From positions 1,280,001 through 1,344,000 of the forward strand of contig OZ250173.1 of NCBI GenBank assembly GCA_965238075.1: 64,000 nucleotides of DNA. Direction: 5' to 3'. The translations under genes were made by a program, and so were the position numbers. Source of the DNA: Candidatus Entotheonellaceae bacterium (GTDB lineage: Bacteria; Tectomicrobia; Entotheonellia; Entotheonellales; Entotheonellaceae). How positions within the stretch are numbered: position 1 is the stretch's first letter; each line of letters opens with the position of its first letter. Below are positions 59,469 through 64,000 of this stretch, one piece after another. A model generated the notes under the pieces. It was not told the origin of the DNA. It was given only the letters and a program-made list of their open reading frames with translations, and searched no databases.

Positions 59469-60730
59469 ATGAGCAGCGATACCGCAATCGTTGACGATCC
59501 ATTCGCCATTGCCCGGTGGCAGTTGGACGCCGTCGCTGAGCATCTGAAACTGGGTGACGGCATGCGCCGCATCCTGCGCACCCCAAATCGGAGCTGACCG
59601 TCACCTTCCCGGTGATCATGGATGATGGGCGCACGGAGGTATTTACCGGGCACCGAGTGCAACACAATGTCGCCCGCGGCCAGGCCAAGGGCGGTATTCG
59701 CTACTCGCCATACGTCACCCTCAACGAGATGCGCGCCCTGTCCATGTGGATGACCTGGAAATGTGCCGTCGTGAATCTGCCCTTTGGCGGTGCGAAGGGT
59801 GGGGTCTGTTGCAACACCAAGGAGATGTCGCTGCGCGAAATCGAGCGCCTCACGCGGCGCTATGCCACCGAAATTGCCTTCTTGATCGGCCCGGCCAGCG
59901 ACATCCCAGCCCCCGACATGTATACCGACTCTCGCGTCATGGCTTGGATGATGGATACGTAGAGTATGCACAAAGGGTACTCCGTCCCTGGCGTGGTGAC
60001 GGGGAAACCCATCAGCGTCGGCGGCTCCTTGGGGCGTTCGGAGGCGACGGGACGTGGCTGCGTGTATGCCATCGTCAACGTGGCGAAGCAGGTGGGTATC
60101 AACCTCGATGGGGCAACCGTGGCGGTGCAGGGTTTTGGCAATGCCGGCTCGGTCGTGGTCAGACTCCTCGCGCAACTGGGATGTCGGATCATCGCGGTGA
60201 GCGATTCAAACGGCGGCATCTACGATGAACACGGGCTCGATGCAGAAGCCCTGCAGGCCTGCAAGCGGGGGACGGGCTCTGTCAGAAATTATTCGTCAGG
60301 CGACCGCCTCTCCAATGAGGCGCTTCTCACCCTCCCCTGCGACATTTTGGTGCCAGCCGCTCTGGAAAATCAGCTCACCGAGCGGATTGCGCCGAAGGTC
60401 CGGAGCAAGCTGATCGCCGAGGCGGCAAATGGTCCGACCACGCCGGCAGCAGACGCGATTTTTCAAGATCGTGGCGTGACGGTGGTTCCCGACATTTTGG
60501 CGAATGCCGGCGGGGTCACGGTCTCCTACTTCGAGTGGGTTCAGAATCTGCAGGAATTTCACTGGAAGGAGGAGCAGGTCAATCAACAACTCAAGGACGT
60601 AATGGATGCGAGTTGCGGTCAGGTTATGGCGCTAGCCGAGCGGGAGCACGCGAGTTTGCGCACCGCGGCATACATCTTGGCGGTTGATCGCGTCGTCAAC
60701 GCGATTCAAGACCGGGGTATTTATCCATAA
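59469..60730 (+). pseudogene. gdhA: Glu/Leu/Phe/Val (glutamate) dehydrogenase with frameshift near 59590 and amber stop at 59960-59962
   Basis: [26 protein letters not shown] (expected MDTYS), QGFGNAG, NAGGVTVSYFEW. Confidence 0.88.
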
Positions 60731-60832
60731 GAGGGTGTCTTGTTTAACGGTCGTTAAATGAGAGGGCGCCAAGCCGGTCTAAAGGACAAAAACAGGTCTA
60801 GCGGTCCGCACCGACCGGCAGTACCACGCTTC

Positions 60833-62062
60833 TCAGATCACGCCCTCGTCCTGCAGCGTGGCGAGTTCGGCATCGGACAGGCCGAGCAGGCCGCCGAGGA
60901 TGTCCTGGTTGTGGGCGCCAACGGCGGGGCCGGGCCAGGTGGTGGCGCCGGGGGTGGCGCTGAGATGGGGGGTAAGGGCGGGGATGCGCAGGGGTTGGCC
61001 GTTGACTTCGACCTGCTGGAACAGGCCGCGGGCGTGGAAATGGGGGTCCTGGAGCATATCCGCGACGCTGTAGATCGGGCCGGCGGGGACGGAAGCGTCG
61101 GCGAGTTGTGCCAGCACCTCGGCGGCGGCGAGGCTGGCGGTCCAGGCGGCGATGGCGGCGTCGATTTCGCGTTCGTGCGCCACGCGGCCGGCGTTTTCGG
61201 CGAAGCGCGGGTCCTCGGCCATGTCGGCCCGCCCGGCGGCGCGCATCAGGCGTTGAAAGATGGAATTGCCGTTGCCGCCGATGACCACGTAGGCGCCGTC
61301 GCGGCAGGCGTAGGTATTGGTCGGCACGATACCGGTCAGGGTCGAGCCGGAAGGCTGCCGCACCAGTCCGGCGCCGTCGTATTCCGGCACCACGGCTTCC
61401 AGCATGTTGAAGACCGATTCGTAAATGGCCACGTCCACCACCTGCCCGTCGCCGCCCGCCGGCTTGCCGCGTTGGATGTATGCCAGCAGGATGCCGAGCA
61501 CGGCGTGCAGTCCGGCCAGCGTGTCGCCCAGGCTCAGGTTGGGCCGCACCGGTGCCTCGCCTGGAAAGCCGTTCAGGTAGCGAAAACCGCCCACCCCTTC
61601 GCACACCGAGGCATAGCCGGGCCGTTCGGCGTACGGCCCGGTCTGGCCGTATCCCGAGACGCGCGCGTAGATCAGCCCCGGATTCGTCGTCTTGACTTCC
61701 TCGGGTCCGAGGCCCCATTTCTCCATGGTGCCGGGACGGAAATTCTCGATCAGCACGTCCACGCGGTCCGCCAATTGGCGGGCGATGCCGCGCCCCTTGT
61801 CGGTCTGCAGATTCAGCGTGATGCTCTTCTTGTTGCGCCCCAGGCTGCGCCACCAAAACGACGTGCCGTTGTCGTCGAGCAGCCGCCAGCCGCGAATCGG
61901 ATCGCCCTTGCCCGGCGGCTCGACCTTGATCACCTCGGCGCCGAAGTATCCGAGGACGCAGCCGGCGAACGGCCCCGCCAAGAGCTGGCCCAATTCGAGC
62001 ACCCGCACGCCGTCCAGCGGTCGAGCGGTCGCAGGGTTCGGTTCCGAAGCAGAAGAGGGCAT
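60833..62062 (-). CDS. CaiB/BaiF class III CoA-transferase
   Basis: LAGPF, VIKVEPP, RNKKS, ENFRPG, GYGQTGP. Confidence 0.95.
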   Translation of the reverse strand: MPSSASEPNPATARPLDGVRVLELGQLLAGPFAGCVLGYFGAEVIKVEPPGKGDPIRGWRLLDDNGTSFWWRSLGRNKKSITLNLQTDKGRGIARQLADRVDVLIENFRPGTMEKWGLGPEEVKTTNPGLIYARVSGYGQTGPYAERPGYASVCEGVGGFRYLNGFPGEAPVRPNLSLGDTLAGLHAVLGILLAYIQRGKPAGGDGQVVDVAIYESVFNMLEAVVPEYDGAGLVRQPSGSTLTGIVPTNTYACRDGAYVVIGGNGNSIFQRLMRAAGRADMAEDPRFAENAGRVAHEREIDAAIAAWTASLAAAEVLAQLADASVPAGPIYSVADMLQDPHFHARGLFQQVEVNGQPLRIPALTPHLSATPGATTWPGPAVGAHNQDILGGLLGLSDAELATLQDEGVI

Positions 62063-62097
62063 GGGGCACGCCTCCTTGGCATGTCGGGCCAGGGAAT

Positions 62098-62535
62098 TCA
62101 GTCTTGCACGTGGATGACGGTGACCTCGAAGACGATGTGCTGACCGGCCAGAGGATGGTTCAGGTCCACCGTCACCGCGGTGTCGTTAATGGCATGAATG
62201 CGATAGGGGATGATGCTGCCGTCCGGCCCCGGAAATTCGCCCTCGAAGCCGAGGTGCCGGGCCGAGGCGGGGAATTGCTCCTTGGAGAGTTCCTGGAAGG
62301 CCGCCGGGTCAATGCACCCGAACGCGTCGGCGGGCTTCAGCTCAAGCCGCACGGTGTCGCCAACGCCGAGACCTTCCACGCCCGTGTGCAGGCCGGGCGG
62401 CATGCGGGTGTGGCCGTGCACGTAAGTCCAGGTGCCGCTGTGTTGGGCCGAGTCGACCAGGGTGCCGTCGGCTAGGCACAGCGTGTAGTCGAGGCACACC
62501 GTCTTGCCGGCCTGCACCCGCTCGTTGCTGCTCAT
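62098..62535 (-). CDS. slyD: FKBP-type peptidyl-prolyl isomerase, SlyD-like (no His tail)
   Basis: DYTL, VDLNHPLAG. Confidence 0.85.
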   Translation of the reverse strand: MSSNERVQAGKTVCLDYTLCLADGTLVDSAQHSGTWTYVHGHTRMPPGLHTGVEGLGVGDTVRLELKPADAFGCIDPAAFQELSKEQFPASARHLGFEGEFPGPDGSIIPYRIHAINDTAVTVDLNHPLAGQHIVFEVTVIHVQD

Positions 62536-62894
62536 GACGCTTCGGGCATCCCCTTTTCCCGCCAGCCGATGAAGCCGCCGATCAGATAATGCACGTTGGT
62601 GTAACCCATCTGCTGCAAGGTCTGTCCTGCCAGGACAGCACGATTCTCGCCGCCTCAATGGGTCACGATGGGCGTGTTCTTGTCGGGGACGGTTTCCTCC
62701 ATGCGGCCCTCGATGAACCCCCGGGCCAGCCACGTCGCCTGCGGAATGTGGCCGTCGTCCCACTCGGCCCGCTCCCTGACGTCCACCACCACAACGCCCT
62801 CGCCCCCGTCCAGTTGGGCGCTGAGGTCGGTTTGGCTGAGGCCGGGCACGACGCGCCGGGCTGCCTCGATCATTTCTCGTCCTGTCATGGCCAT
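62532..62894 (-). CDS. Rhodanese-domain protein with in-frame UGA at the active site (probable selenocysteine)
   Basis: VDVRERAEWDDGHIP...IVTH-U-GGENRAVLAG..LQQMGY.NV..LIGGF.GW; 120 aa if read through; stop overlaps slyD start (ATGA). Confidence 0.85.
62622..62638 (-). promoter_or_regulatory. Candidate bacterial SECIS hairpin
   Basis: CUGUCCU-GGC-AGGACAG perfect stem beginning 16 nt after the UGA. Confidence 0.65.
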
Positions 62895-62920
62895 GCTGAG
62901 TTCTCCTGTAAATGCAGTGT

Positions 62921-62985
62921 CCAGTGGTTAGTGGCTAGTGAAATCTGGGTTTGCTGACCGCTAATCACTGGTCACCAGCCACTGA
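62921..62985. repeat. Inverted arrays of degenerate heptamers
   Basis: CAGTGGT TAGTGGC TAGTG ... CTGACCG CTAATCA CTGGTCA CCAGCCA CTGA. Confidence 0.55.
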
Positions 62986-62996
62986 TTTTTTCCGCC

Positions 62997-63746
62997 TCAA
63001 GCCAGGTTGCTGCCGCCGTCGAGCACCACCACCTGACCGGTAATCAGGTCGGCACGGATCAGGCCCATGACCAGATCGGCCACGTCTTCCGGCTGGCAGA
63101 CGTTCTTCAGAGGCGACCTCTCGGTGGCACCCTGCTTCACGGTCTCGTACTCCTCGCGGGCCTGCCACCAGCGGGTGTCGATGAAGCCGGGCGCGATGGA
63201 ATTGATGCGAATGGCCGGCCCCAGGGCGCGCGCCAGGGCAATGGTCATGGTGTTCAGTCCGGCCTTGGAGGCCAGATAGGGCACCGAGCTACCCACGCCG
63301 TATACCCCGGCCACGCTGGAGATATTGACCACCACGCCGCCGTCGCGCTCCAGGTGGGGCCGCGCCGCGCGGATGACGTAGAACGGGCCTTTAAGATTAA
63401 CGTCCAGAATCCTGTCCCAATCCTCGTCCTGCACCGCCTCCAGGTCGCCGTGCGGGATGAACGACGTCGCCCCGGCATTGTTGACCAGCACGTTCAAGCC
63501 GCCGAGGGTGTCGGCCACCTGCTGCACCATATTCCGCACGGCAGCGTCGTCACCCACGTCGCCCTTGACCGCCATGGCCCGCACGCCCGTTTCCCGCAGC
63601 GCCTCCGCGGTGGCCATCGCCTGCCCCTCCGAGCGCGAGTAATTCACCGCCACGTGGCAGCCCTCGTGCGCCAAGGCAAACGCGATCGCCCGACCGGCGC
63701 CAACGCCGCCGCCGGTAACGAGGGCGATCTTGTCTTTTACCTGCAT
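62997..63746 (-). CDS. Short-chain dehydrogenase/reductase
   Basis: TGGGVGAG, NNAG, YLASK, PG. Confidence 0.95.
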   Translation of the reverse strand: MQVKDKIALVTGGGVGAGRAIAFALAHEGCHVAVNYSRSEGQAMATAEALRETGVRAMAVKGDVGDDAAVRNMVQQVADTLGGLNVLVNNAGATSFIPHGDLEAVQDEDWDRILDVNLKGPFYVIRAARPHLERDGGVVVNISSVAGVYGVGSSVPYLASKAGLNTMTIALARALGPAIRINSIAPGFIDTRWWQAREEYETVKQGATERSPLKNVCQPEDVADLVMGLIRADLITGQVVVLDGGSNLA

Positions 63747-63882
63747 GCTCTCCTCCTGTGTGAATTATGGCATCGGTCGATCATGGCTACCGTCCTGACA
63801 GAGCGTTCAGTCTCGAGCGGCTGGGGTGTTTGGGGGTAGGCAGGCGGGGTGCGGCGGCCTGTGGAGCCGCCGCGGTCAGAGG

Positions 63883-64000
63883 TCAGGAATTCTCTTTCAG
63901 GAATAGGATGATCTTGCGGCGAATTTCGGAATCGTCTTGCTTGTAATACATGCGCACGCCGGGCACCCACGCCTGGGTGCTGGTGATCCAGACGTCGAGG
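63883..64000 (-). CDS. C-terminus of an unidentified gene entering from beyond the window
   Basis: Open frame LDVWITSTQAWVPGVRMYYKQDDSEIRRKIILFLKENS*. Confidence 0.45.
   Translation of the reverse strand, partial: LDVWITSTQAWVPGVRMYYKQDDSEIRRKIILFLKENS

Follow-up and report, generated by a model that had tools for sequence, protein, structure and literature searches.

Where does the minus-strand gene at positions 62532..62894 of the window end? The window is a 64,000-nucleotide stretch of contig OZ250173.1 (positions 1,280,001 to 1,344,000) from a Candidatus Entotheonellaceae bacterium, and gene callers end this frame at an in-frame TGA (62655..62657), after 79 codons. A first-pass annotation of the sequence proposed that the gene is a hidden selenoprotein, a rhodanese in which the UGA stands in place of the catalytic Cys and is read as selenocysteine (Sec). 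This proposal has held up, on the Sec machinery of the genome, the pairing of Sec with Cys among homologues, the covariation of a hairpin downstream of the UGA and the coding signature of the frame beyond it. The gene almost certainly encodes a single-domain rhodanese in which Sec is predicted to replace the catalytic Cys.

The rhodanese frame and its in-frame UGA

Translated with TGA as Sec (U), the coding sequence starts at the ATG 62894-62892 and runs over 120 codons before the stop TGA (62534-62532). Direct reading of the sequence places a Shine-Dalgarno AGGAG on the same strand (62903..62907), 8 nt upstream of the ATG. Codon 80 is the UGA, for which column comparison with homologues predicts a Sec codon at the catalytic position, T-H-U-G-G-E-N-R, and it is followed by 40 further codons, GGENRAVLAGQTLQQMGYTNVHYLIGGFIGWREKGMPEAS, up to the stop. 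As the first-pass annotation had claimed, this continuation is the second half of a rhodanese, both in the translation and in the Pfam domain Rhodanese PF00581, which spans the UGA from residue 21 to 113 (70.3 bits, cut-off 22.2). The stop also shares an ATGA overlap, likewise claimed earlier, with the ATG (62535-62533) of an FKBP-type gene.

The AlphaFold2 model of the full-length protein, built on a 21-row alignment, has a predicted local distance difference test score (pLDDT) of 95.7 and a predicted template modelling score (pTM) of 0.88. Residue 80 comes right after strand 76-79 and before helix 84-95, which is the rhodanese active-site position. The top matches found by Foldseek with this model are all rhodaneses, with 6mxv and 2hhg first (TMq 0.91 for both), then 1yt8, Sud (1qxn) and GlpE (1gmx); by sequence, the closest solved chain is again 6mxv (E = 1.5e-36). 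The active-site loop, U-G-G-E-N-R, counts six residues, i.e. the nucleophile, four residues and Arg. Six is the loop length of rhodanese sulfurtransferases, that of Cdc25 phosphatases being seven.

Homologues were searched in six frames in 17 genomes of the phylum, labelled Tectimicrobiota or 'Entotheonella'. A homologue with exactly one in-frame TGA is present at 16 loci in 15 of the 17 genomes, with identities to the window protein from 99% down to 44%; in G007 and G016 the six-frame search returned distant stop-free paralogues only. The TGA falls in the identical column in 16/16 loci (H-U-x4-R). These loci divide into two subtypes, type A (12 loci; HU[GAM]GE[NGA]R) and type B (4 loci; HUR[RL]D[GSA]R), both of which are carried by genome G010. 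We then consider species-representative genomes, scanned with a pattern from the conserved stretch LQQMGYTNV; the results given here are those of the best 80 loci, which are a sample. The codon in the Sec column is TGA in 15 of them and TGC or TGT in 65. The homologue alignment that the first-pass annotation had put forward as a check thus places Sec and Cys in one column, at the catalytic Cys as it had claimed. Four of the 15 TGA loci are from Dehalococcoidia genomes (47-54% identity, loop H-U-G-G-A-G-R), which brings the total for the phylum and the Dehalococcoidia to 20 loci in 19 genomes with TGA at this column; assembly artefacts in all of them are very unlikely. Full-length homologues from the databases, at most 48% identical to the window protein, have a nearly invariant Cys there.

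In the frames printed for the relatives, no stop lies between the UGA and the terminator. Among 10 type-A sequences, the variable columns at codon positions 1, 2 and 3 number 10, 12 and 22 of 26 over codons 92-117, to be compared with 46, 26 and 71 of 79 before the UGA. Judged by this pattern of variation, the frame after the UGA shows the same coding signature as the part upstream.

The hairpin and the selenocysteine machinery

The first-pass annotation had described a perfect 7-bp stem with a G-first loop 16 nt after the UGA, and the structure is found at that place. This selenocysteine insertion sequence (SECIS)-type hairpin, CUGUCCU-GGC-AGGACAG, lies on the minus strand at 62622..62638, its stem pairing 62638-62632 with 62628-62622 around a GGC loop at 62631-62629. 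Between the UGA and the stem are 16 nt, the 17th being the first base of the stem, and the loop starts 23 nt after the UGA. It has the anatomy of bacterial SECIS elements, in which a stem-loop closely follows the UGA on its 3' side and the small apical loop includes a G.

Covariation was tested on 16 sequences, 13 of them distinct, using 500 shuffles and slid-partner controls. All stem cells are paired across the 13 distinct sequences (91/91), and compensatory changes occur in three of the seven pairs (G-C to U-A, C-G to U-A and C-G to G-C). For covariation the stem scores 0.264, which none of the shuffles reaches (0/500; 0.063 in shuffles), while the slid partner columns are at most 60% paired with no compensatory change. 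Within the genus, the compensatory change puts GUC/GGA for GCC/GGG, i.e. a Val/Ala replacement on one arm and a silent change on the opposite arm. The Dehalococcoidia stem reads UCUUCGCU-GGC-AGCGAAGA, with identical offset and loop. When pairing is scored at this fixed offset in the best 80 loci, 7/7 pairs form in 15/15 Sec loci and more than 5/7 in 0/65 Cys loci. A set of relatives that all have Cys and no conserved hairpin, which the first-pass annotation had named as the mark of a simple nonsense mutation, is therefore not what the alignment contains: 16 phylum loci carry the TGA and every one of the 15 Sec loci carries the hairpin.

The hairpin is also visible in the synonymous sites. In the 10 type-A sequences, third positions vary in 71/79 codons before the UGA, in 5/5 of codons 81-85 and in 22/26 of codons 92-117, but in 1/6 of the hairpin codons 86-91 (1/6 versus 98/110 for the rest of the gene), and the single variable third position is the compensatory change itself. 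The alignments thus clearly point to a selected RNA element tied to the UGA; the hairpin is more than chance because of its covariation and its specificity to Sec forms, not because of its folding energy. Note that this is a clean natural SECIS inside a coding sequence, whose constraint is plain to see: in the Tectimicrobiota forms the RNA freezes both the peptide A-[AV]-L-A-G-Q and its synonymous sites.

In a quick tree the 18 Sec rows form one group with weak support (79). This grouping and the shared loop and offset fit one origin and a transfer between two phyla, without proving it; the common loop and offset further suggest that the gene moved together with its recoding signal. A Cys-form homologue from a Tectomicrobia-labelled genome (L074, 4001-4351; Y-C-A-R-G-N-R) keeps the peptide A-L-A-G-Q-T-L, has no hairpin at the SECIS offset and is set apart from the Sec clade by a long branch in the same tree.

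The genome that holds the window (G000) is one contig of 3.35 Mb with 62.3% G+C, estimated 93% complete. The genes selA, selB, selC and selD, which the first-pass annotation had suggested looking for, are all four above their curated cut-offs: selA scores 606.7 bits (cut-off 267.9), the adjoining selB 357.7 bits (242), selD 318.8 bits (125) and the tRNA-Sec 73.9 bits (gathering score 47), ARAGORN also calling a tRNA-SeC with anticodon tca. We then scanned the whole genome for in-frame UGA codons with coding-like flanks and a nearby hairpin. The scan is noisy (1165 raw and 149 filtered candidates), and it demanded a G in the first two loop bases, so that the finding of G-first loops in further selenoprotein genes is in part circular; we relied solely on candidates whose read-through translations an NCBIfam search went on to confirm. 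Candidates at 1033553, 1261866 and 2371345, among others, were dropped by eye as out-of-frame or low-complexity read-through.

The retained genes include GrdA (NF040748, 206 bits, cut-off 130) and two GrdB-family proteins (TIGR01918, 421 and 386 bits, cut-off 65), each with an in-frame UGA, at G000:C1:1385036-1385536 (-; L131), 1388495-1389862 (-; L130) and 600329-601696 (+; L132). GrdA and one GrdB are 3 kb apart on the same strand. Two UGSC-family selenoproteins (L134, 1107241-1107810, +; L135, 2942282-2942869, +) score 151 and 146 bits with NF041046 (cut-off 125), and two PrdB-like proteins with a U-P-x-C motif (L136, 2325413-2326429, +; L137, 2947153-2948415, -) score 157 and 159 bits with TIGR04483, below its cut-off of 300; in both groups the in-frame UGA has a hairpin 9-12 nt downstream. 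A second Sec-rhodanese, of the two-domain SseA/3-mercaptopyruvate sulfurtransferase-like kind (L133, G000:C1:1187937-1188809, +), has its UGA at T-Y-U-Q-G-G-I-R and a 7-bp hairpin with a GGC loop starting 10 nt after the UGA; its best NCBIfam match is PRK11493, with 127.5 bits where the cut-off is 250. Besides the window gene, this genome has at least five UGA genes that pass curated selenoprotein models, and because these other UGA genes match selenoprotein families, the Sec machinery appears clearly to be in service. The predicted selenoproteome, with GrdA, GrdB-family, UGSC-family and PrdB-like genes and two Sec-rhodaneses, is richer than expected. For the Entotheonella lineage, the accessible text of the literature searched discusses Sec use in selenocysteine P450s only.

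Readings of the UGA and the neighbouring genes

We consider it highly probable that the gene is a genuine Sec-rhodanese, decoded through an intragenic SECIS, and a sulfur, possibly selenium, carrier that works with an FKBP chaperone; its chemistry and partnership are what we infer from analogy and gene order. UGA codon 80 would be read by Sec-tRNA(Sec), delivered by SelB bound to the mRNA hairpin. The resulting selenolate, held in the loop between the central beta-strand and the next helix as is the thiolate of Cys rhodaneses, would accept sulfane sulfur, possibly selenium, and pass it on through a covalent Se-S (or Se-Se) intermediate, again by analogy. In this genus the gene would be translationally coupled to an FKBP/SlyD-type prolyl isomerase-chaperone.

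Several observations weigh against this account or limit its reach. It is built on sequence and a structural model, selenium in the protein, SelB binding and enzyme activity being predictions. The folding energy of the 71-nt stretch is unremarkable (z = -0.46; 57/200 shuffles fold at least as well), and the mean energy of the 45 nt downstream over all 80 loci is similar in Sec and Cys forms (-17.3 versus -15.4 kcal/mol). As it neither stands out from shuffles in a 62% G+C genome nor separates the two forms, folding energy was rejected as evidence for the hairpin. Nothing in 60000-64000 matched Rfam at E values up to 1; the apical loop as drawn has only 3 nt, SelB binding being predicted from anatomy; and only about two lineages, this genus and the Dehalococcoidia, account for the compensatory changes, so that independent events are few. 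The link to the FKBP gene is one of synteny only. The loop of the Sec-rhodanese carries an acidic residue, U-x-x-E/D, in contrast to C-x-x-G in the closest Cys forms, and because of this acidic residue its substrate may differ from that of classical rhodaneses. Finally, one database protein, P0125 (122 aa, on a single 1442-bp contig, in the cluster of P0035), has Ser at the Sec column (T-H-S-A-G-E-G-R). The cluster mates of P0125 end at the UGA, and its Ser could be a real TCA variant or an artefact of gene calling or assembly.

That the TGA is a nonsense mutation or a sequencing error, leaving a pseudogene or a gene that ends at codon 79, agrees with the behaviour of gene callers noted above and with the close database homologues (P0002-P0035, 73-96% identity), of which 34/34 are called as 72-79 residues in a collection of 5.8 billion proteins. 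The probability left to it is nevertheless almost nil, given a TGA column common to 16 loci in 15 phylum genomes, down to 44% identity, and to four Dehalococcoidia loci, no second in-frame stop before the terminator in the printed frames, variation after the UGA that falls mainly on third positions (22/26 versus 10 and 12 of 26) and a hairpin that covaries. We also judge very improbable, by a hair less so, a decoding of the UGA as Cys, Trp or Gly through a changed code or near-cognate reading. Nothing specific speaks for it apart from the Ser of P0125; TGA is the stop codon of the window gene and of every orthologue in the genus, the Sec machinery is complete, the hairpin keeps a fixed position relative to the UGA and is missing in Cys forms, and GrdA and GrdB of the same genome have UGA at known Sec sites.

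A regulatory truncation deserves more thought. Sec insertion is often inefficient and competes with release factor 2, and it can be imagined that the UGA mostly terminates, the main product being a 79-residue fragment and Sec read-through a minor, selenium-dependent event. Yet, according to the model, this fragment would be without the active-site loop and two helices of the fold and would probably not function, selection maintains both the frame after the UGA and the hairpin in two phyla, and the ATGA overlap demands ribosomes at the true stop for coupling to the FKBP gene. We regard this possibility as unlikely, and Sec insertion at codon 80 of a full-length rhodanese remains the reading that we prefer.

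On the minus strand the gene order is as follows: an SDR gene (62997..63746; PF13561 187.2 bits, PF00106 178.1 bits), a 102-nt spacer, the Sec-rhodanese gene, the FKBP gene (62098..62535) with its ATGA overlap, a 35-nt spacer and a family III CoA-transferase gene of the CaiB-like type (60833..62062; PF02515 404.6 bits). The FKBP gene encodes a SlyD/FkpB-like peptidyl-prolyl isomerase of 145 aa (PF00254 FKBP_C 35.7 bits, cut-off 21.1). Of the 11 type-A loci that include DNA downstream of the Sec-rhodanese, 10 have the FKBP gene there, namely those in the six genus genomes, in G010 and G012 (same family) and in G014 and G015 (second family); G011, whose contig ends inside the rhodanese gene, was left out of this count. 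Outside the genus, the FKBP proteins share 60-69% identity with that of the window. The exception is an 'Entotheonella' TSY1-type locus (L092), in which an NFACT-R gene is found downstream instead. In the best 80 loci the FKBP neighbour occurs in nine, all of type A, and no FKBP gene was present in the fetched flanks of type-B, Dehalococcoidia or Cys-form loci (0/65 Cys forms). The pairing thus extends to other genera and to a second family, and therefore the Sec-rhodanese and the FKBP protein probably work together.

The first-pass annotation had proposed co-expression with the SDR, the SlyD-like protein and the CoA-transferase. Its FKBP part extends beyond the genus, as just described, while the SDR and CoA-transferase are neighbours within it only: both are present in all six genus genomes and in 0/4 type-A loci outside the genus with downstream DNA, the CoA-transferase adjoining in the five genus relatives for which flanks were retrieved and nowhere else. 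In the SDR-rhodanese spacer, AGGAGA is the sole invariant block among the six genus sequences. Because the adjacency is limited to the genus and the spacer is not conserved, co-expression with these two genes is only a candidate. The spacer folds no better than chance (z = -1.40) and yields no Rfam match and no promoter- or terminator-like site; with this z value and no conservation in the genus, it was rejected as a regulatory element. A promoter and terminator scan of 60500-64000 returned no promoter-like site; its single terminator-like hit falls inside the SDR gene, and shuffles give more such hits. Some 100-130 nt before the rhodanese ATG, four of the five genus relatives (L050, L051, L053 and L054) have a CTTGACCGGC block in common. 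It is possibly the -35 box of a separate rhodanese-FKBP promoter; the shorter spacer of the window (62895-62996) does not have it.

Of the Dehalococcoidia loci, three were scanned; in each, the gene that comes directly after the Sec-rhodanese on the same strand encodes the large subunit of a xanthine-dehydrogenase/aldehyde-oxidase-family enzyme (L059 4001-6679, L061 4001-6995 and L065 4001-6684; domains MoCoBD_1, MoCoBD_2 and Ald_Xan_dh_C). Amidohydrolase genes flank the Dehalococcoidia Sec-rhodanese loci on both sides. This gene neighbourhood hints at a link to molybdenum hydroxylase maturation.

A more specific extension of the Sec-rhodanese reading, to which we give a low but not negligible chance, is that the rhodanese and its FKBP/SlyD-type partner form a dedicated chalcogen relay, in which a Se-S or Se-Se adduct would be passed to a client and the FKBP protein would be the loading or docking chaperone. 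The client might be selenophosphate synthetase, so as to feed the large selenoproteome of the lineage, or the sulfido/selenido ligand of the molybdenum hydroxylase cofactor. The latter is hinted at because the Dehalococcoidia orthologues, with the same GGC-loop SECIS, adjoin the xanthine-dehydrogenase-family subunit.

Comparison with known selenoproteins and rhodaneses

The first-pass annotation had noted that Sec-containing rhodanese-like proteins were predicted before, and published catalogues and reviews agree with it. A 'rhodanese-related sulfurtransferase' stands in the Sargasso Sea selenoprotein table (PMC1088965), 'Sulfurtransferase COG0607' and 'COG2897' in that of the Global Ocean Sampling (GOS) data (PMC2398784), and eight rhodanese-type selenoprotein genes are given for Olavius symbionts (PMC1976440). 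A 2022 review has three rhodanese forms under 'Predicted' (PMC9312934) and a 2026 review five (PMC13188914), and in the accessible text of these two reviews no rhodanese selenoprotein is entered as experimentally characterised. The class has therefore been predicted since 2005, and the window gene is a further member of it.

Its closest counterparts are the predicted COG0607/PF00581 selenoproteins (rhodanese-like forms 1, 2 and 4, of the Sargasso Sea, GOS and Olavius symbiont sets), which likewise are small rhodanese-domain proteins with UGA-encoded Sec in place of the catalytic Cys; they too have homologues with Cys and, downstream of the UGA, a hairpin whose small apical loop contains a G. 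The motifs printed in the accessible text of the 2026 review are UxxS for form 1, UxxG for forms 2 and 4 and CxU for form 3 (PMC13188914). The clade described here differs from the UxxS and UxxG of forms 1, 2 and 4 in having UGGE, UAGE, UMGE or URRD (UGGA in Dehalococcoidia), a comparison made by printed motif only. The family NF041203 (rhodanese_LYCAU, form 3) also consists of one rhodanese domain, about 125 residues long, whose active-site loop can contain Sec; membership was rejected, the score being 43.6 bits against a cut-off of 115, with T-H before the U and no Cys of a CxU motif. The TsoB rhodanese/DsbD fusion (NF045694) was rejected as well (26.1 bits versus 805), as the window protein has 120 residues and no more than one domain. 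Among NCBIfam models it scores best, at 86 bits, with the rhodanese part of a MoeB model, far below the cut-off of that model. Two-domain COG2897 proteins, of the SseA/3-mercaptopyruvate sulfurtransferase type, likewise have a rhodanese domain with Sec for its catalytic Cys, and L133 of the same genome has a GGC-loop hairpin too; its open frame runs over 291 codons from stop to stop with the loop U-Q-G-G-I-R, as opposed to the single domain and 120 residues of the window gene.

The accessible text of PMC13188914 makes no mention of Tectimicrobiota, Entotheonella or Dehalococcoidia. That of a preprint on Entotheonella (PMC11703216) describes full Sec machinery and Sec-ligated P450s and mentions no rhodanese. 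Our literature search returned no paper joining Tectomicrobia with a selenoprotein, and none joining rhodanese, selenocysteine and SlyD, nor any linkage to FKBP. The Sec clade of Tectimicrobiota and Dehalococcoidia is invisible to homology-based catalogues because its close relatives are all called as stumps of 72-79 residues, and none of the NCBIfam selenoprotein models covers it.

The partner is best compared with SlyD and FkpB (SlpA) of E. coli. The FKBP_C Pfam match ends at residue 74 of 145, and PRK15095 aligns over residues 5-144, which is consistent with an inserted chaperone domain of the SlyD type. It differs from the E. coli proteins in scoring below the NCBIfam cut-offs (76.7 bits for PRK15095, cut-off 125; 62.1 for PRK10737, cut-off 174), and from SlyD proper in ending ...VIHVQD at residue 145, without a His-rich metal-binding tail. 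The 'SlyD-like' label of the first-pass annotation is thus apt for an FKBP of the SlyD/FkpB type and too narrow if taken as SlyD itself.

Finally, the Sec-rhodanese can be set beside solved Cys rhodaneses, namely GlpE of E. coli (1gmx; TMq 0.72), Wolinella Sud (1qxn; 0.80), human TSTD1 (6bev), RPA3614 (2hhg; 0.91) and the Francisella rhodanese-like protein (6mxv; 0.91). They have in common the fold and a nucleophile placed after the central strand. The solved proteins use Cys at this place, whereas the window protein is predicted to use Sec, and it shares no more than 48% identity with its nearest Cys homologues in sequence. The chemistry gained by selenium at the catalytic position of a rhodanese is a testable question.

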